Assembly: GCA_964397855.1 (NCBI GenBank)
Contig: CAYNKQ010000001.1
Coordinates: 38,046 to 102,045 of the forward strand
Reading direction: 5' to 3'
DNA length: 64,000 bases
DNA from: an uncultured Candidatus Saccharibacteria bacterium
GTDB taxonomy: Bacteria; Patescibacteriota; Saccharimonadia; Saccharimonadales; UBA7683
Shown: one piece after another, positions 20,263-51,949 of the stretch
Layout of the letters: each line of letters opens with the position of its first letter
Position numbering within the stretch: position 1 is the stretch's first letter
Position numbers and translations under genes: made by a program
The notes under the pieces: model-generated
Told to the model about the DNA's origin: nothing
The model's database searches: none
What the model saw: only the letters and a program-made list of their open reading frames with translations

Positions 20263-20702
20263 TGGCTGTTGTTCGCCCAACCAAAAAACAGCGCGAACTC
20301 CTGGTGTTTATTGAGCAGTTTGTGCAACAGCATGGCTACGGACCGAGTTATCGTGAAATTATGCGGGGTTGCAACTATAGCTCCGTAGCAACTGTTGCGG
20401 CACATGTAAATAATCTGATCTCTCGCGGTCACCTGAAAAAACGCGACAAGAGTGCTCGTTCACTTGAAGTCGTGAAACAAGATGGCGAAGTCTCTACGGC
20501 ACCGCAGCTCAAAATCACCGCAGCTAACGAAAAGTGGCTCATAGACATAATCGAAGCCAAGTTTAAAGAAGTCGAAACTGCCCCAAAGCTTGAACAGAGA
20601 AACATAGATCAACTTTACGTTGTAACAGGGGCGCTTGCTGTACTTGGCTTCGACGGCGCGGCGGTAGCGTTTAAAAGCCGCCTCAAAGAACTAGAAAAAT
20701 AG
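20262..20702 (+). CDS. LexA-type DNA-binding domain protein lacking the S24 peptidase domain
   Basis: 146 aa. The N-terminus LTKKQRELLVFIEQFVQQHGYGPSYREIMRGCNYSSVATVAAHVNNLISRGHL matches the LexA winged-HTH. The C-terminal 70 aa have no Ser-Lys dyad motifs. Confidence 0.6.
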   Translation: MAVVRPTKKQRELLVFIEQFVQQHGYGPSYREIMRGCNYSSVATVAAHVNNLISRGHLKKRDKSARSLEVVKQDGEVSTAPQLKITAANEKWLIDIIEAKFKEVETAPKLEQRNIDQLYVVTGALAVLGFDGAAVAFKSRLKELEK

Positions 20703-33455: not shown

Positions 33456-33461
33456 CACTGC

Positions 33462-35407: not shown

Positions 35408-35965
35408 CTATACAGCCAATACGATGTTTTGCCATGCGAGCCCGTCACTATCCTTATAGGCAGCTCCGTCTTTCTTAAATCCGAGAGACTCATTTAATTT
35501 TGTTACAGCAATGTTGTCTGCGAGATGTCGAGAGTATACTGTTTTGAGTTTTAGCACATCTCGAATATAGTTTATCGCTGATTGCATTGCCGATCTACCG
35601 ATGCCTTTACCACGATAGTCGGGATTGCCTATCATGATGTGGATACTTGGGGATTTAACACCGTGATTTTCAAATAGCTCTATCCAGACGACGCCAATAG
35701 TTTTGCCGTCGGCCACGATAACACGAGTTATTTGCTTGCCGGAGTCCTCGAGATCGATAAATTCCTGCATAATGGCACGTTCACCTTCTAGGGTGGACGG
35801 TTCTATTTCGTTTTCTGAGTTGCCCATACTTAAGAGAGTGGCATGCCCTTCTGGGCGCGTAAACCAACTGTGTGCAAATGGGGTATCACGATCAACCTCC
35901 GGTTTTAGAAGTTGTATGTCGGTGTGCAGTGATTTCATGATTCTCCTATAGGCCTCGCTCGGCAT
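35408..35965 (-). CDS. GNAT family N-acetyltransferase (paralog of 32910..33455), co-operonic with the aminotransferase
   Basis: 185 aa. SIHIMIGNPDYRGKGIGRSAMQSAINYI GNAT motif A. Overlaps the upstream aminotransferase gene by 20 nt. Confidence 0.7.
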   Translation of the reverse strand: MPSEAYRRIMKSLHTDIQLLKPEVDRDTPFAHSWFTRPEGHATLLSMGNSENEIEPSTLEGERAIMQEFIDLEDSGKQITRVIVADGKTIGVVWIELFENHGVKSPSIHIMIGNPDYRGKGIGRSAMQSAINYIRDVLKLKTVYSRHLADNIAVTKLNESLGFKKDGAAYKDSDGLAWQNIVLAV

Positions 35966-37214
35966 AACGAGCTATAGCGTTCTCAAATTTTTCTATACCC
36001 TCGTGTAGTGTCTCGGTGTCTATATTCAGGGCAGGCATAAACTTAATAACCTCATTGTTGGCACCAGATGTTTCAATAATGAGGTTATTTTCGAAGCACA
36101 GTTGCCGTATCTGGCTCGCAGTCTCACTACTCTGGAGCTCAATACCGTAGAATAATCCTCGTCCTCGAACATCTACAAAAATATTTGGGTACTCCCGGAG
36201 TAGTGTCTCTAGTCTTTTGCGGACAATTAACTCTTTACTTTTAATTTCATGACTAAGATGGTCTGATCGCCAGTATGTCTCTAGGGCTTGTAGGGCGGTG
36301 ATAAAAGCTAAGTTATTGCCACGAAAAGTGCCATTATGTTGACCTGGGCTCCATATGTCAAGTTCTGGCTTAATGAGGAGCAGGGACATTGGTAAGCCGA
36401 TCCCAGATATTGATTTTGATAACACAATTAAATCAGGGTGGATATCAGCGAATTCAAAACTGAAAAAATCTCCAGATCTACCGCAACCTGCTTGAATATC
36501 ATCGATGATAAGTAAAATACTATGTTTAGTCGCTAGTGAGCGTAAATCTTTTAGCCAGTTGGCACTAGCAACGTTAACTCCACCTTCACCCTGAATGGTC
36601 TCGACTATGATGGCCGCTGGTTTATCTAGTCCACTGCTCGGGTCGTTCAGTAGTTTTTCGATGTAGGAAATACTGTCTAAGTCTTTGACGTAGCCTTCGT
36701 ATGGCAAGAAGGCAACATCATTAAGCGGGATGCCTGAAGCATTGCGAAATGATTCGTTGGCTGTGGCAGAGAGCGCGCCCAAACTAACCCCGTGGAACGA
36801 GTGTGTAAATGCAATAACGTTGCTGCGTCCTGTGTTCAGTCGGGCGAGTTTCAGCGCGGCTTCGATAGCGTTCGCTCCGGTTGGTCCAGTAAACTGTATT
36901 TTATATGATAAACTGCGTGGTTCAAGTATAATATCTTCGAATCCTTGAATGAAGTTAACCTTTGCATTAGTTGCCATATCGAGAGAGTGTACGATGCCAT
37001 CGGTACTAATATGGCTAACTAGTGCCTGAATTTGAGAATCCTCATTGTGTCCGTAGTTTAATGCGCCAGCACCACTAAAAAAGTCAATGTACTCCACACC
37101 ATCTTCATCCAAAAGACGCGAACCTTTTGCTTTGTTAAAAACTGCTGGAAAGACACGTACATAGCTGCGCACATTAGATTCGTATTTGTTTATAACGTCA
37201 TGAATAGAGCTCAT
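35946..37214 (-). CDS. Class-III PLP aminotransferase, diaminobutyrate--2-oxoglutarate transaminase (EctB/Dat)-like
   Basis: 422 aa. The N-terminus ...YESNVRSYVRVFPAVFNKAKGSRLLDEDGVEYIDFFSGAGALNYGHNE closely follows the EctB/Dat pattern (...E.RSY.R.FP.VF.KA.GS.L.DE.G.EY.DF.AGAGALNYGHN). Confidence 0.75.
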   Translation of the reverse strand: MSSIHDVINKYESNVRSYVRVFPAVFNKAKGSRLLDEDGVEYIDFFSGAGALNYGHNEDSQIQALVSHISTDGIVHSLDMATNAKVNFIQGFEDIILEPRSLSYKIQFTGPTGANAIEAALKLARLNTGRSNVIAFTHSFHGVSLGALSATANESFRNASGIPLNDVAFLPYEGYVKDLDSISYIEKLLNDPSSGLDKPAAIIVETIQGEGGVNVASANWLKDLRSLATKHSILLIIDDIQAGCGRSGDFFSFEFADIHPDLIVLSKSISGIGLPMSLLLIKPELDIWSPGQHNGTFRGNNLAFITALQALETYWRSDHLSHEIKSKELIVRKRLETLLREYPNIFVDVRGRGLFYGIELQSSETASQIRQLCFENNLIIETSGANNEVIKFMPALNIDTETLHEGIEKFENAIARYAERGL

Positions 37215-37258
37215 GGCGCCATATTAACATAAAAGGGTTTTTCCTCTATAATTAAGCC

Positions 37259-38677
37259 ATGTTGTACGATCACATTGTTATTGGTGGTGGTGCTATAGGC
37301 CTGGCGATTGCCTATCGGTTAAAGCGCGTGCGCAGCAACCAGTCTGTTTTGGTTCTTAATTCTAACGAGGATGCTACGGCATCATTGGCCTCTGGTGCAA
37401 TGCTCGGTTGTTTTGGAGAGGTAACCAAGTATACTCTTTTAGACGAGGACGCAAAGCGTAAGTTTGAATTGATGTATGCAGCGCACAGGCAGTGGGAAGC
37501 CTGGCGTAAGGAAATAGAAGAGTCGGCAGGTAGAAGTATCGAGCATATACCAGGAAGCTATATCATCTTGAATGCACACGGTGGCTCCCTGGATGATGAA
37601 AATTACAATGCCATGATTGCGGCACTTGATAAATACAGAGAACCCTATGAACTCAAAGATCCAAAAGATATTCCGGGCCTCAATCCAAATAGTCTAGCGA
37701 GACCGCTACGCGCAATATACCTCCCCAATGAGGGTTCACTCTCCAGTAATCAATACATAGAGGTTCTGACACTTGCCTGCGCGAATGTGGGTGTGGAGTT
37801 CTCGTCCATAAGCTCACTGGAATCGATCAACCGAAGAGAGGACGGTCAGTATCAGACAACCTTTGATACTGACAATATGGTTCTGGCATCAAATGTGATT
37901 ATTGCCACAGGTGCATATACCAACGAGGTAATCAAAAAGGTTACCCCTACCGTTAAGATGATGTCTGTTTTTTCGGGTAATGGAGTTGCCGCTGTAACTA
38001 AGCGTCAAATCGGCAAAGGCTTTAAGGCGACGGTACGAACTGCAAATCGCGCAGGATCTTGCGGGCTTCATGTTGTACCCATGGGAGACGGCTATGAGTA
38101 TATCGGTGCAACCAATGTGCTATATTCTCAGCCAGAGAGTCGTTTGACAATCGGGTTGTCGCACTTTTTGTCGCAATGTGCGATTGAACAGCTTGATTTA
38201 AACATTTACCATTCTTTTGTCGAAGCTTGGAGAGTCGGGAATCGACCCGTTTCTCTCGATACCATGCCACTTATCGGTAGGCTTGATCAGGGATTATATG
38301 TCGCGACGGGTACCTACAGGGATGGGCTACATTGCTCACCAACAATAGCTACGGAACTTGTGAACTTGATCAATGGAGTGGATGCCGATCTTATTACGAC
38401 TTTTGACCCTAAACGCTCGTTTGTCCAACTCATGTCAAAAAAAGAATCAATCGATGAATTTGCCATGCAGGCTGTGTCGGGTGCGTATGAAAACTGGCAC
38501 CGACCAACCTACTACATGGAAGATGATCTGGTCTATCAGGACGCGCGAAGGAAAGCTGTTGAAATTTACGATCGACTTGATACAGAAGTCGGTCTCCATC
38601 CGGATATCTTGATGCTTTTGGGGTCAAGTGAGAACACCATTAAGGATGTAGGTGCGTATTTGAGGAGCGTCCTATGA
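37259..38677 (+). CDS. FAD-dependent oxidoreductase (DAO/glycine-oxidase superfamily)
   Basis: 472 aa. N-terminal dinucleotide-binding motif IVIGGGAIGLAIAYRL. First gene of the plus-strand biosynthetic operon. Confidence 0.7.
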   Translation: MLYDHIVIGGGAIGLAIAYRLKRVRSNQSVLVLNSNEDATASLASGAMLGCFGEVTKYTLLDEDAKRKFELMYAAHRQWEAWRKEIEESAGRSIEHIPGSYIILNAHGGSLDDENYNAMIAALDKYREPYELKDPKDIPGLNPNSLARPLRAIYLPNEGSLSSNQYIEVLTLACANVGVEFSSISSLESINRREDGQYQTTFDTDNMVLASNVIIATGAYTNEVIKKVTPTVKMMSVFSGNGVAAVTKRQIGKGFKATVRTANRAGSCGLHVVPMGDGYEYIGATNVLYSQPESRLTIGLSHFLSQCAIEQLDLNIYHSFVEAWRVGNRPVSLDTMPLIGRLDQGLYVATGTYRDGLHCSPTIATELVNLINGVDADLITTFDPKRSFVQLMSKKESIDEFAMQAVSGAYENWHRPTYYMEDDLVYQDARRKAVEIYDRLDTEVGLHPDILMLLGSSENTIKDVGAYLRSVL

Positions 38678-39450
38678 GTTCAGAGAGAGATCTTATAAAT
38701 TCGGGCGGTAAGGTAAGTCGTTGGCCCAAGAAGCCAACTGAGCGAAAAGAGGTACTCGCGTATCTTGCGAGTAAGTTCATCTCTGACAGACCGTATGATG
38801 AAAATGAGGTTAACCAAATTCTAAAGCAGTGGCATACGTACGGGGATTGGGCGTCTTTGCGACGAGAGCTAGTCGGCTTTGGGTATGCAGTGCGAGATAA
38901 AAACGGTACTGAATACTGGTTTAGTACCGCCAGAAAAAAAACCGTTGAGAATATTCGAGATTTCAACCAAGATGCCGATACGGATCAAGTTCTGGATTTG
39001 CTAAAAGAATTTCAAAATCATTTAGCCCAAGTTGACAAGGAGAATGAAATTAGGAGTTTTTCGGGTGATAAGGACGCACGTCTATACCTTCAAAAAATGA
39101 TTGATGATGTTGCCGAGATGAACGGTAGATTTCTCGTACTTGATATGAGCGGGGAATTAGTTGGGTTTATTCAAGGAATCATCGATCCAAGGAACGATCA
39201 AGATAATGTTATGTACCAAACGACGCACAATGCTCAGATCGAGGGCTGGATTGGATTAGTATACGTTAAAGAGAATATCCGAGGTGGTGGATATGGGAGA
39301 AAATTAATAGAGGCAATGAGGCAGTATTTTACTGAGAATGGCTGTACGACACTTCGTCTTATTGTTGCTCACGACAATGTGGATACGGTCAACTTCTACC
39401 ACAAGTTTGGTTTTATTGATCGAGACATAGAGATGGCATTACCTCTATAG
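38674..39450 (+). CDS. DUF2087-like N-terminal domain fused to a GNAT acetyltransferase domain
   Basis: 258 aa. The N-terminal RWPKKPTERKEVLAYLASKF...ENEVNQILKQWHTYGDWASLRRELVGFGY pattern matches DUF2087. The C-terminal ...IRGGGYGRKLIEAM... is GNAT motif A. Start overlaps the upstream stop (ATGA). Confidence 0.6.
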   Translation: MSSERDLINSGGKVSRWPKKPTERKEVLAYLASKFISDRPYDENEVNQILKQWHTYGDWASLRRELVGFGYAVRDKNGTEYWFSTARKKTVENIRDFNQDADTDQVLDLLKEFQNHLAQVDKENEIRSFSGDKDARLYLQKMIDDVAEMNGRFLVLDMSGELVGFIQGIIDPRNDQDNVMYQTTHNAQIEGWIGLVYVKENIRGGGYGRKLIEAMRQYFTENGCTTLRLIVAHDNVDTVNFYHKFGFIDRDIEMALPL

Positions 39451-39453
39451 CGA

Positions 39454-42400
39454 TTGTTTATGAAAGTTGCTAAGAAACATCTTTATGATTTCATCCATGA
39501 GCATGCGAAATATCGTCCCGACACGCCTGCGCTACGAGACGATACGCATAGATATAGCTATGATGATCTAGATCGGATTTCAAATTATTTTGCAAATCAG
39601 CTCGTTGAGCTAGACGTTTCAGGTAAGCACGTCGGGTTGGTGTATGATCAATCTGCTCACAGTATTATTTTGTTACTGAGCATTATGAAGGCGGGGGCGG
39701 TCTATGTGCCAGTTGATGCAAATCTTCCTGTTGATCGACTAAACTCCTTGTTGAGTAAGGCCGATATCGCGCTACTTATTAAACCGATCGGATCGTCCTA
39801 TAAAAATAACGAAATACCGACAGTAGAACTCTCGCCTGTCAGTGGTTCGGAGCTCAAAGACTTTCCTCAGCTTCTGGATCCAATAGGGGGTGAAGTGGCG
39901 TATGCGATCTTCACCTCTGGTTCAACTGGTTTACCAAAATTAGCACGCCTTAGTCACAGTTCCGTTATCGGAGTAATGGAGTCACTAGTGGATAGATATT
40001 ATATAGAGGGTAGTGATCGGGTTCTCCAGTTTGCTAATTTGGCATTTGATGGGTCGATTTCAGAGATCTTCGGTGCTTTTGTTGCGGGGGCAGAATTACT
40101 GGTGCCAAGCTTATCTACAAGACAGGGTGTTACGCGGCTATCCGACTACATGAGAGATATGGTGGTGGACGTTGCGGTATTGCCGCCCTCACTGCTTACG
40201 CATCTTACTATTGATTACAGCCCAAAGACAGTTGTAGTAGCGGGAGAGCCGTGCCCTGCTGCTCTCGCAAAATTTATGGTTTCAAAGGTCGAACATTTCA
40301 TCAACGCATATGGCCCAACAGAGTGCTCTATTTGCGTATCCACATATGAGGTTCCTCGTAATTTTAATGACACGGTTGTACCAATCGGCCTACCGCTACC
40401 TAATGTAAAAACTTTAGTAGTGGGCGAGCACGGTGAACTGACAAAGCCCGGTCAGGCGGGAGAGCTGCTGGTTGGTGGGCCAAGCCTATTTGAAGGGTAC
40501 TATGATAACCCAGATAAGACTAAAAAATCTGTGAGGTTACACGGGGGTAAGAAGTATTATAGAACGGGTGATAATGTGTCAGAGCAAGATGGATTTTTTG
40601 TCTATCATTCGAGGGTCGGTGATTATATAAAAATACACGGACTACGCATTTCTTTATTGGAAATCGAAGATCTAATTCACGAATTTAGTCCAAAAATTCG
40701 TAGCGTCGCGGTTATTGTGGCGTCAGTTCATCAAGATGATGAACTCGTTGCGTTTTATGCGAGCAACGAAGAATTACCGGTTAGTGATGTTGTCACTCGT
40801 CTTCGTAGTAAATTACCAGAGTACGCGATACCGAGACAGTTTATTCGGATGGATCGTCTGCCGCTAAGCAGCAACGGTAAGATCGATCGACGACTCCTGG
40901 CCTCCAGGGCTAAGAGCGGCGCTACACTGCAAAAGCCTCAAACAGGCAATACCCTAAAAGCGATTTGGCAGAATGCTCTCGGCAAAAGCAGTATTAATGA
41001 TGACACGAACTTTCTCCTTGAAGGAGGTGATTCTCTTAGGGCGATGCGAGTTCTCTCTGAAGTTGATCGTGCATACGCCACCAGTCTGACTTTATCTAAT
41101 CTATTTGATCACCCAACCTTTGGTGAATTCTCTCGATTTATTAAGATGACTTCCCCGAGCAACCGTGATGATTTGAGCATTAATACAGACAAACTTTCTG
41201 AATACGAGAAGATGCTATGGAGTGCCTCATCGTATTCAGGTAACGCCGCCGCCTACACGCTAACAGAGCTTTTGAAGCCTGATTTTAAAGTAGACATCAA
41301 ACTGCTTCAAAAAGCAGCCGACAGGATGTCGAATCATTTCCCCGCGTCTTTTTATCGATACAAACTTGATAATGGTGAGCTCGTAAGATCCTCTTCATTA
41401 AGAGGAATAGGCTGTGTTATTCGCGGTAGTGTAACTCAAGATGTGCTTGATGAAGAGATTGCCACACTAAGTCATTTGCCAATAGACACTGCTACTGATT
41501 CGCTGATAAGTCTACATGTATTTACGCTTGATAATCAAACGGTTATTGCTATCCATGCTCACCATATCGTACTGAGTGCGAGCATCATTACGTCTTTTAT
41601 CGACACATTGTGGTCATTGTATCTAGATATTGACCACGAACCTCAGGTGATTGAATCTCCCATTCCGTTATATGATGACAAAGATAAGGAATTCTGGAGA
41701 GGAGCATACGATACTTCTACAGAGTACGTAGAGCTGCCGTGGGTAGGCGCTAGAAGCCCCACTCCGCGTAATAATGGACGAACATTACAGTATACACTTA
41801 ATACTCCTATTGAAGCGGCCTTACGCCACCTTGGCGTCACAAAGTACACTTTCTTTAGAAGTATATTTTCATTGATTCTACATCAGCTATCTGATCAGCC
41901 ATCGTTTTATGTTGGGAGCTCAGTGGACGTACGGAATGCTGATGGACTTGGTGGTAGGCCCGCACTATTGAATACACTTCCTGTGCCGTCGGTATTAGAT
42001 GACACTAGTCTTTCTTTTGGAGAGTTTGCACGTGGCAGCCAACAAAAGATACAGGAAATTCTAGATCATCGCTTCTTACCACTTAGTGAAATAGTAAAGC
42101 TTAACAAATTCGAACATGATAGGTTGATTGGGCCATTTAATATACTATTCGACTATATAGAAAAGCCAGACTCATACACCGTTCCGGGGCTTGGTCGAGT
42201 AAGTAGCGAGCAGGTCTTTAACGACACTTCTAAGTACGATTTAACCTTGACCGTATTAGAGTCATCCTCGGTTACTCTGCAATGGGAGTACGATGTAGAT
42301 ATTATAAACGCGAGCGACATTGAACGCCTGGCTGCGATGTTCATACATGTATGTCGATACATATCTGCCCATCCCGATGCCCTAGTGAATGAAATTGCGC

Positions 42401-45400
42401 TGCTGGGTGAGGCTGATCTCAAGGCTGCCTTAGCGATTGGAAAGGGTGAAATAAAGCTATACGACCAAGCCTCATTTTATGAGCGTTTTGTGAAAACAGT
42501 GCATTCTTATCCAGATCGAGTGGCTGTTAAGCATGGGGAAACTGTGACAACGTATAGAGATCTCGGTTATCTTGTTGAACACTATGCTCGCGTACTTGCG
42601 GATCATCATTTGGCGCCAGAGGCCGCTGTTGGTGTGTTGATGGAGCGATCTGTTGAGATGGTAGCTGTTATCGTCGCGCTGTGGCGAATGGGCCACGCCT
42701 ATGTTCCTATTGAGCCTGTTTTTCCAGAGCATCGAATCCGGTCAATTATAGAGACGACTCACATGTCATTGATTATTACCACATCGACACTTCTATCTCG
42801 GATGCCTCGCGAGAGCACGGCGGTCATTGTCGATGAAAATTATGAACCAAGTGCTACGAATATTTCAGGCACTAAGGTGACGACCGATACGCTGGCGTAT
42901 GTAATTTTTACTTCCGGGTCCACCGGCAAGCCAAAGGGTGTAATGATTGAGCACGGAGGTATGATGAACCATGCCGACGGAATGGTTGATAGGCTAAACC
43001 TTAATTTCAACTCAGTCATCGCTCAGACAGCCTCGCACTCGTTTGATATATCAGTTTGGCAGCTAACAACAATACTGCTCACGGGTGGATCTCTTGTTAT
43101 CTATTCAAAGGATGATCAAGCCAATATCGACACCTTTACATCGCAAGTATCAATCGATGGAATTACGCTTCTGGAGCTCGTCCCTTCTTATATTAGTGTT
43201 TTACTAGAATATATTGAAGGGAGAAAAATTCATGCTCGATTTGAGAGTATAGCTGCGCTGATATCAACTGGTGAGAATATATCTTGGCCAGTCGTCAGGA
43301 GTTGGACAGAAAACTTTCGGGATATTCCACTTATTAATGCATACGGTCCGGCAGAGGCATCCGATGACACAAATCTGTATATTTTTGACACTGTGTCCAC
43401 GATGAGTCACCGTGGCTTGCCAGTTGGTAAGTCTCTGCCGAACGTAGATGTATATGTCTTTAACAAATCATTGCAACCGCAACCGGCTGGAGTGCCGGGG
43501 GAAATCTATATCTCCGGTTCAGCTGTCGGTCGCGGCTACGTTAATGATGAAGCTCGGACGAAGGAAGTCTTTTCTATAAATCCATACGATAATACCCGGC
43601 TTTACAAAACTGGAGACATGGGGTATTGGTCGAATGACGGACAGCTTATGTATTTGGGGCGATCAGACTTCCAGGTTAAGATCCGTGGTTTTCGTATTGA
43701 GCTTGAAGAGATTGAAGCGCATATTATGGGCTATCCAGATGTACTATCGGTTGCCGTCGTCGTCTTTGAACATAACGGTTCTAAACAGCTTCATGCATAT
43801 TTAACATCCGAAAAAGAGATTGACACAGAGATGCTTCTGGCACACTTGCGAAGTCGCCTACCAGATTATATGGTTCCAGTGAGGGCGACCCAACTATCCG
43901 AGCTTCCACTGAACAATAGCGGTAAGGTTGACAGGAACCTCCTTACTAACAAGGAGAGGCTACGATTTAGGCAAGACGAAAGTGTGCCCATACAGCTGAC
44001 GAAGGAAGAAGCAGACGTCATTAGCGTGTGGAGTGAGGTGTTTGGACTCGATCACATATCAATTGACGATGATTATTACATGCTGGGCGGCGACTCAATC
44101 GCTTCTTTTAGAGTTTATGCAAAGCTTGCGGCTAAGGGATACAAGTTTCCACTTCAAGCTATTCTTGCACATCCGGTAGCACGTGATCTCGCAGCAGAGC
44201 TGCTCGTTACAAGAAAAACGAGTAATACCATGGCGAGTATTAAGGCAGAGACTGCTCTGCCGCTAACGCCGATTCAATCACGTCTCTTGTCGAACGGTCA
44301 CAAGTTGATTGCACAGAATGTATGGATCGATGGGTATTGGGACACGCAACGGCTCGGTTTGGCCATCCAGGTAGCTATTAAGAGGCATGGCGCATTCAGG
44401 CTTTCATTTACAAAAAGCACACAGAAATTTGAAAACGATATTCTTACTAGAAGAAACTTCACGTTTGTAGAGCCAGAAGTAGATAAGGCTACTGCGTTTG
44501 ATCGACTGGGCGACGACCTTGCGAATGGTGAGTTGTTATCGTACGGTGCGGTAGGGGACGACCACGCTATTACTAGGCTTTATATATCAGCAAACCACTT
44601 GGTGATTGATGTAGTCTCTTGGTCGATTCTGCTGGCGGATATCTATGAAGCGTATGATCATCCGAACGATAAGGCAGTGGCTATAGATTATAACTTAGGT
44701 CGGTGGGCATTATATCAACAGACAATAAAAGAGCCTCAAGAGCATCTGTTGTTGTGGCGAGATACTCTTTCGTCGGGTAAAGATGCTGTCAGAATTCTAC
44801 AAAATAAATTTGATGACTCGTTACCAAATGTGCAAGCTGTAAACAGCTCAGTTACTGTGGGTGATACTTTTATTGATGAAGCCCGTGTTTATGAATCTGT
44901 TATTGTTGGGCTAGAAAAAATACTTGGGGTAAAAGGTGTCAGTATTTTGGTTGAGTCACACGGTCGTTATGCTGAATCTTCAGGCGTGGATATCTCCCGT
45001 ACTGTTGGTTGGTTTACGGTTCTGTATCCAGTAGCGGGTAGTTATAAAGACATAGCGTCCGTCCTGAACGCAGATGATGACACTAGGCTGTCCTATGGTA
45101 GATTGATACAATCTGGGTCACTTCAGAAGCTGAGCGAACCACAAGTGATTGTAAATTATCTCGGCGACTTGGGATCAACCGGCTACCATTTACAGCGGAA
45201 CCGTCACGAGTTGCCACTTGATCGTGAACTAATGGAGATATCTATTTACAGACGACAGGCCGAGCTAATAATTGAGATGATGTTCTATGCGACGCCGATT
45301 GATAACCTGTTTATCGAGAGGTTGCAGAGTGCAATCGGCGATCAGCTAAGACGGGCCAATAACGTAGTGGACGACGACCGCCTAAGCACTATCTTGCGTA

Positions 45401-45420
45401 GATTGGAAGGTAACTCATGA
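39454..45420 (+). CDS. Non-ribosomal peptide synthetase, two modules: A1-T1-C-A2-T2-C(terminal)
   Basis: 1988 aa. A-domain cores occur twice (FTSGSTGLPK / FTSGSTGKPKG; FDGS / FDIS; NAYGPTE / NAYGPAE; YRTGD / YKTGD; GRxDxQVKIRG-like; NGKIDR / SGKVDR). T domains EGGDSLRAM and LGGDSIASF. The internal C has a variant HHIVLSA motif. The C-terminal ~370 aa form a C-like domain (NHLVIDVVSW). Confidence 0.9.
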   Translation: MFMKVAKKHLYDFIHEHAKYRPDTPALRDDTHRYSYDDLDRISNYFANQLVELDVSGKHVGLVYDQSAHSIILLLSIMKAGAVYVPVDANLPVDRLNSLLSKADIALLIKPIGSSYKNNEIPTVELSPVSGSELKDFPQLLDPIGGEVAYAIFTSGSTGLPKLARLSHSSVIGVMESLVDRYYIEGSDRVLQFANLAFDGSISEIFGAFVAGAELLVPSLSTRQGVTRLSDYMRDMVVDVAVLPPSLLTHLTIDYSPKTVVVAGEPCPAALAKFMVSKVEHFINAYGPTECSICVSTYEVPRNFNDTVVPIGLPLPNVKTLVVGEHGELTKPGQAGELLVGGPSLFEGYYDNPDKTKKSVRLHGGKKYYRTGDNVSEQDGFFVYHSRVGDYIKIHGLRISLLEIEDLIHEFSPKIRSVAVIVASVHQDDELVAFYASNEELPVSDVVTRLRSKLPEYAIPRQFIRMDRLPLSSNGKIDRRLLASRAKSGATLQKPQTGNTLKAIWQNALGKSSINDDTNFLLEGGDSLRAMRVLSEVDRAYATSLTLSNLFDHPTFGEFSRFIKMTSPSNRDDLSINTDKLSEYEKMLWSASSYSGNAAAYTLTELLKPDFKVDIKLLQKAADRMSNHFPASFYRYKLDNGELVRSSSLRGIGCVIRGSVTQDVLDEEIATLSHLPIDTATDSLISLHVFTLDNQTVIAIHAHHIVLSASIITSFIDTLWSLYLDIDHEPQVIESPIPLYDDKDKEFWRGAYDTSTEYVELPWVGARSPTPRNNGRTLQYTLNTPIEAALRHLGVTKYTFFRSIFSLILHQLSDQPSFYVGSSVDVRNADGLGGRPALLNTLPVPSVLDDTSLSFGEFARGSQQKIQEILDHRFLPLSEIVKLNKFEHDRLIGPFNILFDYIEKPDSYTVPGLGRVSSEQVFNDTSKYDLTLTVLESSSVTLQWEYDVDIINASDIERLAAMFIHVCRYISAHPDALVNEIALLGEADLKAALAIGKGEIKLYDQASFYERFVKTVHSYPDRVAVKHGETVTTYRDLGYLVEHYARVLADHHLAPEAAVGVLMERSVEMVAVIVALWRMGHAYVPIEPVFPEHRIRSIIETTHMSLIITTSTLLSRMPRESTAVIVDENYEPSATNISGTKVTTDTLAYVIFTSGSTGKPKGVMIEHGGMMNHADGMVDRLNLNFNSVIAQTASHSFDISVWQLTTILLTGGSLVIYSKDDQANIDTFTSQVSIDGITLLELVPSYISVLLEYIEGRKIHARFESIAALISTGENISWPVVRSWTENFRDIPLINAYGPAEASDDTNLYIFDTVSTMSHRGLPVGKSLPNVDVYVFNKSLQPQPAGVPGEIYISGSAVGRGYVNDEARTKEVFSINPYDNTRLYKTGDMGYWSNDGQLMYLGRSDFQVKIRGFRIELEEIEAHIMGYPDVLSVAVVVFEHNGSKQLHAYLTSEKEIDTEMLLAHLRSRLPDYMVPVRATQLSELPLNNSGKVDRNLLTNKERLRFRQDESVPIQLTKEEADVISVWSEVFGLDHISIDDDYYMLGGDSIASFRVYAKLAAKGYKFPLQAILAHPVARDLAAELLVTRKTSNTMASIKAETALPLTPIQSRLLSNGHKLIAQNVWIDGYWDTQRLGLAIQVAIKRHGAFRLSFTKSTQKFENDILTRRNFTFVEPEVDKATAFDRLGDDLANGELLSYGAVGDDHAITRLYISANHLVIDVVSWSILLADIYEAYDHPNDKAVAIDYNLGRWALYQQTIKEPQEHLLLWRDTLSSGKDAVRILQNKFDDSLPNVQAVNSSVTVGDTFIDEARVYESVIVGLEKILGVKGVSILVESHGRYAESSGVDISRTVGWFTVLYPVAGSYKDIASVLNADDDTRLSYGRLIQSGSLQKLSEPQVIVNYLGDLGSTGYHLQRNRHELPLDRELMEISIYRRQAELIIEMMFYATPIDNLFIERLQSAIGDQLRRANNVVDDDRLSTILRRLEGNS

Positions 45421-48275
45421 CGAGTCTGATTGTTGATATTTTGCCTACGACTCCCATGCAAGAGGGTATGTTGCTTCTTGAGCGTTCGTCAGCCAAAAAG
45501 TCGCTATATAAAGAGCAGTATGTAGCTAGATTGACCGGTAACTTAGACATCAGACTTTTTCTATCTGCATGGCAAAAGACAGTCGACACACACACGATAC
45601 TGCGAACAATTTTTGACTGGGATGGGCAAAACGACCCTGTGCAGATTGTACTGAGACAACACAAGGCAGACGTCAAAGTGGTTGATTCTCTTCAGGGTAG
45701 TCAAACAAAGGATGATGTAATCGCGGCTGAGGCGATTAAGGAGTTTAAAATTGATGTTACGCCGCCTCATCAGCTGTTGTTGGTCAGGATGAGTCCAAAC
45801 GACTACATCATGGTGTTTACTTACCACCATTTACTTCTTGACGGTTCTTCTGTGGCGAGCATCTTTAACTATTTTGCAGAACAGTATAACTCTCCTGATA
45901 CACTCCGGCCCGAGTTAAATAATTACGGCGAATATACTCGATGGGTGCTTGCTGTACCAAAACAGGACGCTATTAGTGCTTGGCGTACATACGCTGATCT
46001 TTCTCAGTTAGATCCAGAAAAAGGTGCAGTAGAGGATACTAACGATATAACTCAAGAATACTCCAGGGTGTTGACGGGGGATACAGTTGGTATGCTTTCT
46101 TCGCTCGTCCGAAAATATCATGTGACAATGAGCAGCGTGCTCCAGATTATGTGGGCGCAGACAGTCGCTCAAATGAACTCGAGACAGCTCGTGAGTGTCG
46201 GTTCGCCGGTAACCGTTAGGCCACTGGACGGAAGCCTCGACTCAATAGTTGGTTTATGCATTAATACACTACCCTATGTCGTGATGTTTGATGGGAAATC
46301 AGGATTTATTAATTTAGTTAAGCAGCATCAGCAGTCGTGGGGAGGGCTGATTGGGTTTGGGGGTTTGTCACTAAGTGACATTAAGAAGGCGCTTAAGTAT
46401 CGGCATTTTGGTGATACATTCGGGACACTATTTACCTATACAGATGAGCGAGACAGGGCCATGCCCAATCTGGTCGATGTAGAATGGCAGTTAGTATCTC
46501 ACGATGAAATTACGCAGTACCCGTTGTCGGTCGACTGCGTCCTTCGTGACGAAGCTCTTGAAATTAAGGTGACTTATCGTAGCGGGACGTATGACGAAAG
46601 TCTCGTGGCTAAAGTCGTCTCTAATTTCATTGGTATTATTAAAAGCGTTGTCGTCGATCCGAATCTGATTCCTCAAGTATCTGAAGAGTATGAGTCAGTG
46701 ACTCAACCCCCTGATGTGAGTTATGGCCCAACGGAGTTAGCAGGCGAGATTGCGGACGTATGGTCAATTGTATTTAGTGCGCCAGTATCTATTAACTCTA
46801 ACTTCTTTGATTTAGGAGGTGACTCAATCAGCTCACTTCGCATTGTAAGTAAGCTGTCCGAGCGGGGCATCGTTGTATCAATGCGCGATATCTTTGACGC
46901 CCCATCTCCATTGCTACTAGCATCTCGCGCCAATCGTCACACTGAGCCGCCGGGCAAAGTACACCGTACTATTGTACGATCAGAGGTGCATGATGAGGCA
47001 TTGCATCGTTTTGGCGATAATTTAGATACAATAGTTAAGGCTTCGAGTGTTCAGAGTGGAATATTAAACCGTTCCGCGAGCCGGGCCCAGCTCTACCATG
47101 ACCAGTCAACCTTTACGTACGAAGGGGTACTTAAAGTTGAATTATTTGAGCGGGCTTGGAATGAAGTTGTTAGGAATAACGACTCGCTATTGATGAGGTA
47201 CTTCCAACATGAAGGGATCTGGTACTGTACTAAGCTTAAGAGTGATAGTTTAGTAGTCAGATTCCGTGATATTGCCGAAGAGCCGAACCATAATGATCTA
47301 ATTCGGCGCGATATTGATGCCGATCTTCAGACGCCATTTAGTGTCGAAGATAAGCCATTGATTCGCTTAACTGTCTACCGGCAGGCTCGTGATATCCATA
47401 CGCTTTTTCTTAGCTTTAACATCCTGGTTACTGACGGGTGGGGATTTGCTTTTTTGTTGGACGATGTATTTACCGCCTATGAGCAGCTCGTCAAAGGCGA
47501 AGAGGTTCGACTAGTTGAGCGATTGCCCAGCTATACGGATTATCTTGGTGCTATAACACCAAGAGATATACTTGTCGGCCGACAATATTGGCAAGAAAAG
47601 CTTCGGAAGTGCGTCTCCCCGGGAGTTGTTATTGATAACTTTTCAAACCTTTCCAGTATGAGGGAAGTGCTGGATGATATGCAAACTGCTCGCTTACAGC
47701 AGTTAGCGAATGCGCAGAAGCTTACGGTAAATTCGTTAGTTCAAGCTGCGTGGGCAAGGGTATTAAATGGCCAATCGGGGGGTCAACCTGTTTTGTTTGG
47801 ATCAACAATTTCAGCTCGGTTACTGCACGGGGTGCATTATGATAACACGGTCGGGATGTTCTTCAACGACATTCCGGTAGTTGTGAGATGTGAAGAATCA
47901 GATGAAATTGCTAGCCTAGCTCGAAATATCCAGCGCGATTTTCAAGAGAGTGTTCGTTACGGGTATGTGTCGTCATATGAAATGTCTAAGATGTTAGGTA
48001 GGTCGTCGGAGCAAGCGCCGTACGATAGTATTGTGGTATTCGAGAATTACCCCAAAGTTGAAGAGGAGAGTTTGCGCAACAACTCGAGGGGCGGACTGGT
48101 CAACAGTGCGTTCTGGCGGCGAGACATGGCCGATATACCAAAAACACTGTACGTTGAAGTGATAGGCAATGAGACCGCTATTAGGCTCTCGTATAATCAA
48201 GATTTAGTTTCACGGCAGGAGGCAGAGGCTATGCTAGGGAAGTTCTATCGGGAGCTACTTTCATGTATATCATAG
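45417..48275 (+). CDS. Stand-alone NRPS C-T-C protein (no adenylation domain); second C domain lacks the active-site histidines
   Basis: 952 aa. C1 has canonical YHHLLLDGSS. T domain LGGDSISSLRI. C2 has FNILVTDGWG in place of HHxxxDG. Start overlaps the NRPS stop (ATGA). Confidence 0.8.
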   Translation: MTSLIVDILPTTPMQEGMLLLERSSAKKSLYKEQYVARLTGNLDIRLFLSAWQKTVDTHTILRTIFDWDGQNDPVQIVLRQHKADVKVVDSLQGSQTKDDVIAAEAIKEFKIDVTPPHQLLLVRMSPNDYIMVFTYHHLLLDGSSVASIFNYFAEQYNSPDTLRPELNNYGEYTRWVLAVPKQDAISAWRTYADLSQLDPEKGAVEDTNDITQEYSRVLTGDTVGMLSSLVRKYHVTMSSVLQIMWAQTVAQMNSRQLVSVGSPVTVRPLDGSLDSIVGLCINTLPYVVMFDGKSGFINLVKQHQQSWGGLIGFGGLSLSDIKKALKYRHFGDTFGTLFTYTDERDRAMPNLVDVEWQLVSHDEITQYPLSVDCVLRDEALEIKVTYRSGTYDESLVAKVVSNFIGIIKSVVVDPNLIPQVSEEYESVTQPPDVSYGPTELAGEIADVWSIVFSAPVSINSNFFDLGGDSISSLRIVSKLSERGIVVSMRDIFDAPSPLLLASRANRHTEPPGKVHRTIVRSEVHDEALHRFGDNLDTIVKASSVQSGILNRSASRAQLYHDQSTFTYEGVLKVELFERAWNEVVRNNDSLLMRYFQHEGIWYCTKLKSDSLVVRFRDIAEEPNHNDLIRRDIDADLQTPFSVEDKPLIRLTVYRQARDIHTLFLSFNILVTDGWGFAFLLDDVFTAYEQLVKGEEVRLVERLPSYTDYLGAITPRDILVGRQYWQEKLRKCVSPGVVIDNFSNLSSMREVLDDMQTARLQQLANAQKLTVNSLVQAAWARVLNGQSGGQPVLFGSTISARLLHGVHYDNTVGMFFNDIPVVVRCEESDEIASLARNIQRDFQESVRYGYVSSYEMSKMLGRSSEQAPYDSIVVFENYPKVEEESLRNNSRGGLVNSAFWRRDMADIPKTLYVEVIGNETAIRLSYNQDLVSRQEAEAMLGKFYRELLSCIS

Positions 48276-48967
48276 TAATTGATGTTACCAAACTATCTAT
48301 TGGAGTAAAGCAATATGCCTTAACGTTGTTGGACGAGTCAGAGAACGTGAGGTATTCTAGCTACCGACATTCAATTGATGCAGACTTGTTCTTATTCGGA
48401 AGGTTCTTGACTAGGCAGCTTATTTCACATTTTACAAAACGCACCCTGAACACTGTAACTATTAGAAGTGACAGTATTGCAGATAAGCCATATGACGTAA
48501 CAGGTGAGACTGAATTCAGTATTTCTCACAGTGGTAATTACGTTGCTGTCGCCGTGGGCGATGAACCGGTCGGTATAGATATACAGGTTCACGACCAAGA
48601 TGATATACAGATGTTTAATCCATTTTTTACCAAAGAAGAGCGTGTGTATGTAGGTAGCGATACTGGTAGATTCTACCGCGCATGGACAGCCATCGAGTCC
48701 TTGGCTAAGATAACAGGACTAGGGTTTAATGAGTCTCTTAAGGGCCGAATAATATATAATAACGGCTTTGAAATTGATAAATATATGCTAGGTAACGATA
48801 TAGTCTATATATCGTGCTTACTGGCAGACGACCAATTCACCCTTGGTATTTCAAACTATAAAGAGCCAGTTGTGACTGACCTTCCGTTTGGATGTATCAA
48901 GAAGGCACTTAACAATATCGATGAGTCGGCAATAATTTACTCTGGTAAAATACTATCCGAGGTGTAG
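48263..48967 (+). CDS. Sfp-type 4'-phosphopantetheinyl transferase
   Basis: 234 aa. FSISHSGNYVAVAV...VGIDIQ (G.D motif) and FYRAWTAIESLAKITG (W..KE[AS]..K motif). Overlaps the upstream gene by 13 nt. Confidence 0.7.
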   Translation: MYIIVIDVTKLSIGVKQYALTLLDESENVRYSSYRHSIDADLFLFGRFLTRQLISHFTKRTLNTVTIRSDSIADKPYDVTGETEFSISHSGNYVAVAVGDEPVGIDIQVHDQDDIQMFNPFFTKEERVYVGSDTGRFYRAWTAIESLAKITGLGFNESLKGRIIYNNGFEIDKYMLGNDIVYISCLLADDQFTLGISNYKEPVVTDLPFGCIKKALNNIDESAIIYSGKILSEV

Positions 48968-49971
48968 ATGTCGGTAGTATCGATATTTGCACCATTTTCA
49001 AAACCATTTACGAATGATCGGAACGCCTTAGGTGTGACCTCGTGGTTGTAGCCGCCGCCAAACAAGATTAGGGAGCGTATACTCATTTCACCTAACGATT
49101 GTCCGATCTGGCCATACTCTGCGTTATCCAGGTGTGTCAGTGGTGGTAGGTCGGGCCACTCGCGAGCATGCCCGTCAAAACCAGCCTCCACTATCAGGAT
49201 ATCTGTCCCGAAAGAGATAATCTTATCTTTTGCTCGCGCGAGTAATTGCATGTAGTCCTCATAAGAAACACCAATTGGAAACGGTAGATTTAAGATTGTG
49301 CCTTCTGCTGTACCGTTGCCCGTTTCGTGTGGGTAACCTGTGTGTGGCATTAATTCATCTGGATCAGCGTGAAGCGATACGTAGAGGATATCCGGGTCAT
49401 CTTGTAAGATGTCTTGCGTGCCATCGCCGTGGTGTACGTCAATATCTAGAATGGCAACTCGTTTTCCCGCTTGTTTTAGAGCTTCCGCCGCAATAGCTGC
49501 GTTATTCAGGAAGCAAAAACCATGATAGAATTCTCTTCCAGCATGATGCCCTGGCGGGCGGGCAAGGGCAATGGTCAGTCTTTTGCCTTCGTCGTTCAGG
49601 AGGCCATCGGCTGCTGCTATAGATATCTCTGCAGAGTTAAATGCCTGTTCAAGCGTGCCTGGATAGATAGCCGATGCATTGGTTCCATTATCTATATCGT
49701 AGCGCGATTTGACCGGTTCGTCTTCAGACGACGCCAAGCCTGCTTTATAGATGGCTTCTATCATGTTGGCGGAATGCAATTTCTCAACAATTTTAATCGT
49801 TTCAGGGTGTATCTCTGGAATAATAATCCACTCAGTTGACCTAGGGTCAGACAGTAGCTCGGTAACGACGCCATATAGACGTTCCGGAACATCCCAGGGC
49901 TGGCCATCTTCGTCGATCCATCCTTTATGAGCCTTATGGTCAGGGTTATGGTATATGTGACGATCTTTCAT
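48937..49971 (-). CDS. Histone-deacetylase-family amidohydrolase (acetylpolyamine/acetoin-utilisation AcuC-like deacetylase)
   Basis: 344 aa. ILDIDVHHGDGTQDI is the HDAC/arginase-fold zinc-site signature. Also has a GFCFLNNAAIAA motif. Convergent with, and overlapping, the PPTase gene. Confidence 0.8.
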   Translation of the reverse strand: MKDRHIYHNPDHKAHKGWIDEDGQPWDVPERLYGVVTELLSDPRSTEWIIIPEIHPETIKIVEKLHSANMIEAIYKAGLASSEDEPVKSRYDIDNGTNASAIYPGTLEQAFNSAEISIAAADGLLNDEGKRLTIALARPPGHHAGREFYHGFCFLNNAAIAAEALKQAGKRVAILDIDVHHGDGTQDILQDDPDILYVSLHADPDELMPHTGYPHETGNGTAEGTILNLPFPIGVSYEDYMQLLARAKDKIISFGTDILIVEAGFDGHAREWPDLPPLTHLDNAEYGQIGQSLGEMSIRSLILFGGGYNHEVTPKAFRSFVNGFENGANIDTTDIYTSDSILPE

Positions 49972-51358: not shown

Positions 51359-51949
51359 ATGGATGGAGGGCCGTTTCGTACGCCACGACCAACCCAGGGA
51401 AGGGTCGTCAGTAGGCCGGTGACACAGCAAAAGCCGGAAGAAGCACGACCAGCAAGTGTAGAGCCAAAGGCTGTGCATCGGGCAGCCGCGCCGCATCACC
51501 GAACGCCAAAGGAGGCGAGCGCGCCAAAGCGACGATTTGTGTGGCCAGTAGTGGCGGCTGTTGCGGTTGTAGTGGTAGTTGTTTCGAGTCTATTTATATG
51601 GTCAAAGCTAAAAACTCCCGCTCTTGCGGTCGATAGTAGTAAGTATCAGGCAGTCTTCTTCACAAACGGACAGGTCTACTTCGGTAAACTCCAGCCGTTC
51701 AGCAGTGAGAGCTTGAAATTAAAAGATGTTTACTATTTGCAGACGCAGACTGGTACAGATACTGATTCCGAAAAATTGCAGGAAGCAGCCACTGACCAGA
51801 ATAACGTTCAGCTAATAAAGCTTGGTGATGAAATTCATGGCCCACAGGACGAAATGGTTATTTCTAAAAGCCAAGTGCTTTTTTATGAGAACCTTAAGTC
51901 TGAGGGTAAAGTTGCGCAGTCTATAGAGCAGTTTAAGAAATCAAAATAG
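51359..51949 (+). CDS. Single-pass membrane protein with a Pro/Arg-rich N-terminal cytoplasmic region
   Basis: 196-aa ORF. TM VWPVVAAVAVVVVVVSSLFIW. C-terminal soluble domain. Confidence 0.4.
   Translation: MDGGPFRTPRPTQGRVVSRPVTQQKPEEARPASVEPKAVHRAAAPHHRTPKEASAPKRRFVWPVVAAVAVVVVVVSSLFIWSKLKTPALAVDSSKYQAVFFTNGQVYFGKLQPFSSESLKLKDVYYLQTQTGTDTDSEKLQEAATDQNNVQLIKLGDEIHGPQDEMVISKSQVLFYENLKSEGKVAQSIEQFKKSK

Follow-up and report, generated by a model that had tools for sequence, protein, structure and literature searches.

A probable self-contained nonribosomal peptide cassette, with an inferred diaminobutyrate-peptide pathway, in a Saccharibacteria genome

Gene content and layout of the cassette

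Candidatus Saccharibacteria belong to the Candidate Phyla Radiation (CPR), ultra-small symbionts with minimal biosynthesis, and assembly-line peptide synthesis is a capability thought to be almost entirely absent from these host-dependent bacteria (relatives have genomes of ~1 Mb). Here we describe a gene cassette built around a nonribosomal peptide synthetase (NRPS) at positions 35408-49971 of a 64,000-nucleotide stretch of Saccharibacteria contig CAYNKQ010000001.1 (the window). A sequence-only reading of the window had listed eight genes there, and all eight are present as intact open reading frames (ORFs), with the coordinates and domains it gave (Pfam, NCBIfam; 14.5 kb). We consider it probable that they constitute an intact, self-contained nonribosomal peptide cassette in a Saccharibacteria genome, with an inferred pathway to a peptide of 2,4-diaminobutyrate (Dab), and that this cassette is accessory cargo circulating at least within Saccharibacteria. 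Observed directly are its genes and their catalytic motifs, the lineage of the host, the conservation of the whole as a unit and the lack of it in close relatives. The genes are as follows, with A, T, C and E denoting adenylation, carrier, condensation and epimerisation domains.

35408-35965, minus strand: GNAT1, acetyltransferase (Acetyltransf_3; Pfam PF13302, E=4e-14)
35946-37214, minus strand: class-III aminotransferase (EctB)
37259-38677, plus strand: DAO-family flavoprotein, Orf1/Fms14 homologue (the oxidase)
38674-39450, plus strand: fusion of DUF2087 (Pfam PF09860, E=2.6e-21) and GNAT2 (PF00583, E=3.5e-18)
39454-45420, plus strand: NRPS with two AMP-binding, two PP-binding and two Condensation-family domains (Pfam/NCBIfam)
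45417-48275, plus strand: stand-alone C-T-C protein (Pfam)
48263-48967, plus strand: Sfp-type phosphopantetheinyl transferase (PPTase; Pfam PF22624 and PF01648)
48937-49971, minus strand, convergent: HDAC-family protein (Pfam PF00850, E=1.5e-60)

The genes overlap at their ends and are therefore translationally coupled: the oxidase gene shares 4 nt with the DUF2087-GNAT2 gene, the NRPS gene 4 nt with the C-T-C gene, and EctB 20 nt with GNAT1, while the PPTase and HDAC genes overlap convergently by 31 nt. The PPTase gene overlaps the C-T-C gene by 13 nt, in line with the coupling within one operon that was first read. No frameshifts were found in the eight ORFs, and both A domains hold motifs A3, A4, A5, A7 and A10 (A8 is canonical in A2 and variant in A1); the disrupted A-domain cores that the sequence-only reading had allowed for are not seen. 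EctB and the oxidase gene diverge from an intergenic region of 44 bp (37215..37258). A few bases before the oxidase gene begins stands a TATAAT box, placed identically in three cassette relatives (L077, L078 and L080; four lineages), which suggests a putative promoter with a leaderless or very short-leader transcript. The PPTase has the motifs GIDIQ and WTAIESLAK, and its closest and only NCBIfam match is AusB (47.8 bits, cut-off 225). That no described product family was apparent from the gene content still holds, in that the parts list matches no characterised pathway that we found.

Host chromosome, insertion locus and cassette relatives

Contigs in two independent Logan assemblies (SRR16797988 and SRR16798008) are identical to the window. 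Both bridge the cassette to the gene for a 1025-aa protein with a carbohydrate-binding module (CBM; 52985-56062), the longer one continuing through the ATP synthase operon, and a 160-kb NCBI contig, from a third assembly, holds the same proteins. Among named genomes, 70 relatives of this protein were found, and almost every one bears the label Candidatus Saccharibacteria, Saccharimonadales, Saccharimonas or Microsaccharimonas. The ATP synthase genes stand in the same order in 11 related loci (L006, L007, L015, L060-L065, L068 and L069) with AtpD 89-94% identical, and the closest complete relative, CP011211.1 (AtpD 94% identical), measures 1,038,683 bp. On the left flank, the order GlmS, glycosyltransferase, sugar transferase, Wzy and a 146-aa gene is reproduced in L065 and L069. 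Because both flanks are syntenic with named Saccharibacteria genomes, we read the contig as a Saccharibacteria chromosome; judged by this synteny, the window DNA belongs to Candidatus Saccharibacteria (CPR). The reduced genome suspected earlier is thereby borne out, given the synteny with Saccharibacteria metagenome-assembled genomes (MAGs) on both sides and the size of the complete relative, and the large-genome Firmicutes- or Actinobacteria-like host named as its alternative is not.

None of the cluster genes was found in the 70 related loci (tblastn, E<=1e-10). In L065, homologues of 20262-20702 and 51359-51949 lie only 333 bp apart, and in the window they are separated by 30.7 kb, such that the stretch from ~20.7 to 51.4 kb stands in place of the 333-bp gap of L065. 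In other relatives the same gap measures 0.3-6 kb, sometimes with a tRNA-Asn (L055 and L069), and since its content varies between relatives the locus is a variable hotspot. It is delimited and filled as follows.

20262..20702, plus strand: left conserved flank gene, 146 aa; its homologue adjoins the right flank in L065
21052-21126, plus strand: tRNA-Asn (ARAGORN)
21085-22884, minus strand: large serine recombinase (Resolvase and Zn_ribbon_recom), its 3' end overlapping the 3' part of tRNA-Asn
21085-35400: accessory island with the serine recombinase, an SRAP peptidase, a Y-family polymerase, a TIR-domain protein, an alpha/beta hydrolase, a GNAT and an AadA-like nucleotidyltransferase
35408-49971: the cassette
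51359..51949, plus strand: right conserved flank gene, 196 aa, end of the variable region

Homologues of the right flank gene occur in 50 fetched loci (48 related ones and the window's own two contigs), beside the 237-aa and CBM genes; the L075 gene at the position corresponding to the 146-aa gene matches LexA_DNA_bind. An accessory region that starts at a tRNA-associated serine recombinase, as described in the sequence-only reading, is real (ARAGORN; Resolvase and Zn_ribbon_recom). The horizontal acquisition proposed with it is supported as probable. The cassette is absent from all 70 related loci, and 30.7 kb replace 333 bp; linkage to a recombinase elsewhere, att repeats and a foreign composition were not seen. 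No recombinase was seen adjoining the cassette in L075-L084, and, with no att repeats either, the hotspot may hold island and cassette as independent cargo. GC content is 0.448 in the cluster, 0.463-0.465 in the core flanks and 0.424 in the island, and the cluster genes have a third-position GC content (GC3) of 0.40-0.45, against 0.41-0.48 for core genes; tetranucleotide correlations did not discriminate. The comparison of cluster with surroundings that had been proposed thus finds the cluster host-like, which speaks against a recent arrival from a donor of different composition.

Seven relatives match the NRPS over its full length (47-50% identity, 1976-1993 aa), and the next matches, from mixed phyla, are at most 34% identical. 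In the contexts of four relatives the genes for GNAT, EctB, oxidase, DUF2087, GNAT, NRPS, C-T-C, PPTase and convergent HDAC follow in the same order with sharp borders. The block from GNAT to HDAC recurs at about 50% identity in L075-L081 with flanks that differ by carrier, among them restriction-modification systems, an ABC/FtsX pair and a PrnB-like gene, and the convergent HDAC gene previously taken to close the cluster forms the same border in these relatives with unrelated flanks. DUF2087 and GNAT2 are two separate, coupled genes in the relatives; their fusion, correctly spotted beforehand, is specific to this genome. In L075/L076 the cassette again neighbours the LexA-like/Wzy/sugar-transferase genes known from the window, in inverted orientation. 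Across the family the accessory enzymes are 61-71% identical, versus 42-51% for the synthetases. A wider family (31-34% identity) has DUF2087, HDAC, GNAT, NRPS, C-T-C, PPTase and EctB in reshuffled order. In its member P0018 the C-T-C protein is fused to the NRPS, and L082 and L084 have a methyltransferase and no oxidase; the contig of L083 is short and shows only part of the set. Because they are kept in this wider family, HDAC, GNAT and DUF2087 are core components of the cassette, and the methyltransferase in place of the oxidase suggests a variable amine-tailoring or capping step.

An exhaustive HMMER search of 1.84 billion cluster representatives gave only eight full-length colinear matches to the C-T-C protein: that of the window, one at 48%, five at 28-33% identity and the fused P0018. 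A metagenome scan with the C-T-C alignment, which carries generic carrier-domain patterns, gave 79 loci among the matches listed, all unrelated NRPSs at 30% identity or less without the cassette signature, and is uninformative on distribution. Directly after the HDAC gene, L080 (18269-19318) and L081 (15942-16895) have the PrnB-like gene, and L077 (14902-17594) has the ABC_tran and FtsX pair, a possible exporter; the window has neither.

By label, synteny or flank homology, four of the eight carriers are placed in Saccharibacteria: the window (synteny), P0005 (label), the Microsaccharimonas carrier L075/L076 (label and flank homology) and L078, one of whose flank proteins falls in a 90%-identity cluster with named Saccharibacteria proteins. 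With its composition host-like and its closest placeable relatives in other Saccharibacteria, any transfer of the cassette looks intra-CPR. Three observations sit badly with this picture. The carriers beyond those four are not placed in Saccharibacteria, one carrier (L081, GCA_035564035.1) is labelled Dongiaceae, and no att-like repeats or tRNA-end copy were found bounding the 30-kb insertion. As to the label, the cassette contig and further contigs of the Dongiaceae-labelled MAG match the 74.7-kb Logan contig L080, which has a GC content of ~0.47; that of Dongiaceae is far higher, so that mis-binning (a mixed bin or a mislabelled Saccharibacteria genome) is likely.

The Dongiaceae label could instead be taken to mean that the cassette came recently from a phylum with large genomes (Actinomycetota, Bacillota or Pseudomonadota), or that the contig is chimeric or mis-binned, and the position of the cluster in a variable region near a recombinase, along with the actinomycete origin of the characterised oxidase relatives, would agree with this. 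Outside the cassette, however, proteins 43-51% identical to the oxidase occur in other CPR genomes, one of them labelled Levybacteria (45%), whereas the named actinomycete copies are 36-43% identical; these closest non-cassette oxidases hint that the cassette recruited a CPR-resident enzyme. The flanks are Saccharibacteria on both sides in three assemblies, GC and GC3 fall inside the host's range, the nearest NRPSs beyond the family, of mixed phyla, reach 34% identity at most, L080 with its Dongiaceae-labelled proteins has the GC content given above, and four carriers are placed in Saccharibacteria independently. We judge import or chimerism highly improbable. The cassette is likely accessory cargo at a tRNA-Asn-linked variable locus, circulating at least within Saccharibacteria.

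Two Orf1-like paralogues of the oxidase (L085 7226-8638 and L087 10001-11410) are ~45% identical to the window enzyme and keep the catalytic Cys and Glu. Paralogues of this type lie in a housekeeping neighbourhood (FtsH, 5'-3' exonuclease and Fpg, with MurD in two of three) flanked by TrmB-family regulators and without an NRPS.

Synthetase domains, predicted substrates and tailoring enzymes

ATG 39460 is the probable start codon of the NRPS gene (1986 aa, the length annotated in public assemblies; the identical protein P0001 is found in NCBI and Logan assemblies), and the domain order of the NRPS is A1-T1-C1-A2-T2-E. The C-T-C protein, which Pfam confirms as the stand-alone protein first reported, contributes C3, T3 and C4. 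All domains lie on the plus strand.

39481..40923 (approximate bounds): A1, pocket code DGSVVAAICK
40951..41142: T1, Ser527 (codon at 41032) in GGDS
41194..42417: C1, Pfam Condensation, residues 581-988, motif HHIVLSA
42493..43926: A2, pocket code DIWEITADDK
44011..44208: T2, Ser1548 (codon at 44095) in GGDS
44251..45417: E, motifs NHLVIDVVSW and ESHGRY
~45435-46664: C3
~46734-46931: T3, Ser470 (at 46824), likewise in GGDS
~47013-48266: C4

The AMP-binding Pfam match reaches E=3e-130. The earlier layout, A-T-C-A-T-C, holds for its two intact modules and fails at the last domain, where 8/8 PDB matches are E domains or E-domain parts (PvdL, BacC, TycA/B, GrsA). The printed PvdL alignment spans both E motifs, which are conserved in the family; the first His of the E motif is Asn or Asp in the close family and the second His is present. 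On these motifs and structural relatives the domain after T2 is an epimerisation domain, and a sixth NRPS domain of the condensation type is ruled out. C1 has weak solved relatives only. As a whole the protein recalls AusA of the aureusimine pair AusA/AusB, a small A-T-C-A-T-X synthetase with its own Sfp-type PPTase and the second-best whole-protein NCBIfam score for this NRPS (771 bits, against an equivalog cut-off of 2500). The substrates differ, and AusA ends in a reductase domain, in contrast to the E domain and separate C-T-C protein here.

The ten-residue A-domain codes, the extraction of which had been suggested, were obtained by motif-anchored extraction (control GrsA gave DAWTIAAICK), that of A2 being read from the alignment. 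The A1 code is conserved as DGS[V/I]VAAICK across the whole family. Its last five residues are those of GrsA-Phe, and it is identical at 7/10 positions to DASTVAAVCK, a code recurrent in unrelated NRPSs and possibly a Tyr code. Together with small residues at code positions 2 and 3 this suggests a large aromatic or hydrophobic L-amino acid as the A1 substrate. PrnB presumably acts on tryptophan derivatives, and the PrnB-like neighbour in L080/L081 would be a weak hint of an aromatic residue.

A2 resembles the 'mode 3' diamino-acid pocket described for SulM-A3 of the sulfazecin NRPS (PDB 9N1V), with Glu at code position 4, Asp-Asp at 8-9 and, in its BLAST homologues, Ile at 2 (PMC12042044): the A2 code has all of these residues. 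Positions 5 and 6 are Met and Asn in SulA3 versus Ile and Thr here, and 9n1u scores 233 bits against A2. That A2 activates a short diamino acid is well supported by its predicted pocket, and Dab is preferred over 2,3-diaminopropionate (Dap) only because EctB is a conserved cassette member. The fused relative P0018 has the A2-type code DIWELTADDK. No match to DIWELTADDK, DASTVAAVCK or DGSVVAAICK was found in the open literature, and a homology search with A2 alone gave matches of 30-40% identity in many phyla, without substrate names and with the family members not listed.

C3 has the canonical motif HHLLLDG, and the best matches of C3 and C4 among solved structures are condensation domains of BacC, PvdL, McyB, TycB and SrfA-C. 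These follow E domains and accept D-configured donors, so that the C3 matches fit an E domain followed by a D-accepting C domain. C4 reads FNILVTDG here and FHILVTDG in the relatives, and its loss of the second, catalytic His, shared by all members, is a conserved trait and not decay. T3 comes without an A domain; it is ~27% identical to T2 versus ~16% to T1, which lends weak support to A2 loading T3 as well as T2, in trans. A-less carriers loaded in trans are known from AmbB/AmbE (AMB), HMWP1 (yersiniabactin) and the T-C repeats of fungal ferrichrome synthetases. T3 shares with these a canonical Ser, an upstream C domain of active type and the missing A domain, and lies nearer T2; unlike theirs, the terminal C domain here has no catalytic His, and the trans-loading is putative.

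The aminotransferase scores 628.7 bits against the equivalog TIGR02407 (cut-off 552.2) and 638 bits against NF006733 (NCBIfam), and has the pyridoxal-phosphate lysine motif SKSISG. By this family assignment it is a bona fide EctB, diaminobutyrate-2-oxoglutarate transaminase, which sharpens the previous call of a diaminobutyrate-aminotransferase-like gene paired with a GNAT; because the score exceeds the curated cut-off, the cluster is predicted to make its own L-2,4-diaminobutyrate. The best solved relatives of GNAT1 (61-71% identical across the family) are diamine/spermidine N-acetyltransferases, with weak matches (E ~1e-5 to 1e-6).

EctB with a GNAT also recalls EctB/EctA, and the product might then be an ectoine-like compatible solute or a Dab-based siderophore. 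GNAT1 gave no match to EctA models at E<=1e-5 (NCBIfam), and no EctC (cupin) gene lies in the cluster or the window, which rules out the ectoine pathway. Nearest on the siderophore side is pyoverdine, whose chromophore precursor, built by PvdL with PvdH, likewise combines Dab with an aromatic residue. PvdL has an E domain, then a D-accepting C domain and a Dab-activating A domain, and the Dab aminotransferase PvdH supplies its substrate. Here E, C3 and C4 all match PvdL structures, the Dab supply is EctB-type, and PRK05691, presumably a PvdL-type model, is the best-scoring NCBIfam model for NRPS and C-T-C protein, well below cut-off, with the best stretch of A2 in the last A domain of its 4334 residues. 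PvdL is tetramodular, however, in contrast to the dimodular NRPS, and an acyl starter module, chromophore-maturation genes and downstream NRPSs are missing here. The E domain follows Dab here and Tyr in PvdL. Domain scans of cluster and window found no hydroxylase, formyltransferase, catechol, hydroxamate or heterocyclisation functions and no receptor or uptake genes, and an amidine synthase and a deacetylase would have no role in either product. We therefore regard a siderophore or compatible solute as very unlikely.

The FAD oxidoreductase of the sequence-only reading is indeed an FAD enzyme of the DAO family, but the generic label does not stand: it aligns over its full length (residues 4-442 to 33-477), the C-terminal extension that ThiO-type glycine oxidases lack included, with Orf1 of BD-12 streptothricin biosynthesis, deposited under the name N-formimidoyl fortimicin A synthase (Orf1/Fms14 type; PDB 8gri/7xqa, E=1.7e-65), and reaches only E=6e-13 with glycine oxidase 4ysh, which rules out a generic or ThiO-type oxidoreductase. 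Orf1 oxidises glycine and moves a formimidoyl/iminoacetyl group to a primary amine via a Cys281 N-O-S adduct; C281, E426 and R342 are essential, and the E312A mutant still formimidoylates (PMC10156733). Mapped through the peptide AFAC281GLHLVPR, the window enzyme keeps R342 and R368 of the FAD/glycine site, C281 and E426 of the second site, and F316 and T298 around the adduct, and C281, E426 and R342 are kept in the other 20/20 aligned homologues as well. It is ~35-40% identical to Orf1/Fms14 at most and stands in an NRPS context in place of an aminoglycoside/streptothricin pathway. Conservation of this second site marks the oxidase as a putative amidine-installing enzyme (N-formimidoyl/N-iminoacetyl synthase).

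GNAT2 has the N-terminal acetyltransferases ARD1/Naa30 as best solved relatives and RimI as best NCBIfam match. DUF2087 is associated with transcriptional regulators such as the cluster-situated modulator BtmL (PMC7113386) and, by analogy, is likely the cluster regulator, as a putative nucleic-acid-binding module. The HDAC (69-71% identical across the family; no match to curated NCBIfam models) is closest to HDAC6 (E=1e-47), APAH (3q9b/6phr, E ~1e-42 to 1e-43) and HDAC10, and gives E=2e-26 with 5li3, an 'acetoin utilization protein' chain that we take to be AcuC-type. The motifs PPGHHA, DIDVHHGDG, AGFDG and GGGY, aligned to HDAC6, provide the His-His dyad, Asp-His-Asp zinc ligands and catalytic Tyr. 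APAH thus supplies its best bacterial solved relatives with the zinc and catalytic residues in place; embedded in an NRPS cassette, however, it presumably acts on an N-acetylated Dab peptide and not on a polyamine. Since the diamine-type GNAT, APAH-type deacetylase and Orf1-type synthase converge on primary alkylamines, acetyl-masking, unmasking and amidination is the simplest reading of the set.

GNAT and HDAC might instead be paired as an AcuA/AcuC-like reversible lysine-acetylation switch on the A domains in place of product tailoring. AcuA and AcuC act on acetyl-CoA synthetase, and protein acetyltransferases target a P-x4-G-K motif in AMP-forming enzymes. Both A domains hold this motif at A10 (LPLSSNGK and LPLNNSGK), the closest solved relatives of GNAT2 are protein N-acetyltransferases, and at least one GNAT and an HDAC are kept in every variant with the whole cassette on its contig. 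The Gly of the A1 G-K pair, however, is replaced in several relatives (NKK, NQK), GNAT1 is akin to diamine acetyltransferases, with its gene coupled to that of the Dab synthase, and the HDAC scores ~145-166 bits against APAH and HDAC6/10 versus 96 bits against 5li3. We consider such a switch unlikely and retain product tailoring.

Proposed pathway, its weight and the neighbouring island

In the pathway that we propose, EctB would convert aspartate semialdehyde into L-2,4-diaminobutyrate, and the Sfp-type PPTase of the cluster would prime the three carriers T1-T3. A1 would load a large aromatic or hydrophobic L-amino acid onto T1 and A2 would load Dab onto T2, after which C1 would couple both residues and E would turn Dab into D-Dab. 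The D-peptidyl-accepting C3 would then hand the dipeptide to the cargo of T3, probably charged in trans by A2 with a second Dab. With no release domain in the cluster, release is assigned to the His-less C4 and/or attack by a Dab side-chain amine with lactam formation; Orn thioesters, for comparison, lactamise spontaneously. GNAT1/GNAT2 would acetylate, and the APAH-like HDAC deacetylate, side-chain or terminal amines, and the Orf1-like oxidase would transfer a glycine-derived formimidoyl/iminoacetyl group to give an amidine-bearing cationic peptide. Acetyl-masking with late deacetylation is known from puromycin and bialaphos biosynthesis, and acetylation followed by deacetylation would here most likely serve protection or self-resistance before a final amidination. 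DUF2087 would likely regulate the cluster.

We predict with high confidence that this is a functional NRPS cassette in a Saccharibacterium, and with moderate confidence that it uses a diamino acid and involves amine tailoring; confidence in the exact chain, the order of tailoring and the release step is low. The product is likely a short cationic peptide with an aromatic residue, D-Dab and probably a second Dab, the amines of which would probably be acetylated, deacetylated and amidinated.

A number of findings count against this pathway. The sole structurally verified mode-3 A domain, SulA3, binds L-2,3-diaminopropionate and not Dab (PMC12042044); the conserved EctB argues for the latter here. 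EctB is conserved across the cassette family except in the L075/L076 cassette, so that one lineage lacks it. The acceptor-site residues E312/E313 of Orf1 are Gly/Leu in the oxidase, and none of the other 20 homologues has both (P0250 keeps E312 only), which indicates another acceptor and is compatible with the chemistry, the E312A mutant being still active. DIWELTADDK, presumably the PvdL Dab code, is a lead only. The second His of C4 is I/V in every family member, down to 28% identity, and C1 keeps the catalytic His of HHIVLSA with Asp replaced by Ser in all close family members, so that off-loading and even the chain order are guesses. No thioesterase or reductase domain was found in any cluster protein (Pfam, NCBIfam) or elsewhere in the window, and the window holds no transporter.

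The His-less C4, the variant C1 and the A-less T3, along with the missing release domain and transporter, could be lesions of a decaying relic. That the same oddities occur in every member down to 28-33% identity indicates selection instead; the reading frames are all undamaged and coupled in translation, the accessory enzymes still share 61-71% identity between lineages, and a streamlined 1-Mb genome would be unlikely to retain 14.5 kb of dead DNA. We find decay scarcely credible, and the cassette is better read as intact.

Biosynthetic gene clusters (BGCs) are rare in CPR and mostly encode ribosomally synthesised and post-translationally modified peptides or terpenes (PMC7298704, PMC9765116, PMC12153355), and no NRPS or polyketide synthase was found in cultured Saccharibacteria (PMC8694215). 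We found no description of this cassette in the open-access literature; automated antiSMASH surveys may have counted such clusters without comment, and we do not claim a first report. NRPS machinery as such is already known, and what sets this case apart is the lineage of its host, its set of parts and a terminal domain without the catalytic His. The assembly line, which brings its own PPTase, precursor supply, tailoring enzymes and likely regulator, takes up ~1.4% of a genome of roughly 1 Mb, and such an outlay implies strong selection for a secreted small molecule. It also makes the chemical dealings of epibionts with their hosts or rivals accessible to experiment, since the cassette, self-contained and only 14.5 kb long, could be synthesised directly and expressed in a heterologous host. 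Of interest to enzymology are an amidine synthase of Orf1 type that works in a peptide setting, an APAH-type deacetylase among the core parts of a BGC and a conserved His-less terminal C-like domain.

More tentatively, we suggest that the cassettes may be a CPR-resident NRPS family for undescribed cationic peptides, composed of an aromatic residue, D-Dab, probably a second Dab and a glycine-derived amidine, which would stay acetyl-masked until the deacetylase acts, be released by the His-less C-like domain and be used by the epibiont on its host or competitors. If true, this would give the Candidate Phyla Radiation its first assigned non-ribosomal natural product, and the release chemistry of the His-less domain would be one not yet described.

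Around the locus, the 1025-aa protein with its CBM is widespread in Saccharibacteria (loci L005-L074), and the related genomes form two groups by their ATP synthase operon. In one the operon adjoins the 1025-aa gene (AtpD 89-94% identical); in the other it lies ~6 kb off in opposite orientation with AtpD 50-62% identical, a large divergence for a protein this conserved. Within the island, a PADLOC scan of the proteins gave weak matches only, and homologues of the Y-family polymerase occur at the same hotspot in L022 and L039. The island also holds three copies of a ~35-nt conserved core, GGTTATAACTTCCTCTATCGTTGTGAGCCAAGC, at 30984-31095, 32042-32153 and 33469-33508, each just 3' of a small gene (gene ends at 30935, 32011 and 33455); copies 1 and 2 are followed by a terminator-like hairpin (GTCAGAAC...GTTCTGAC and a T run), and the arrangement, amid the hydrolase, GNAT and AadA-like genes, is cassette-like. 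Between the HDAC gene and a 126-aa ORF (50413-50793), finally, lie two palindromes ATACCA-N7-TGGTAT at 50144-50162 and 50385-50403, the sole two matches in the window (0.21 expected by chance), and the pair resembles operator sites.

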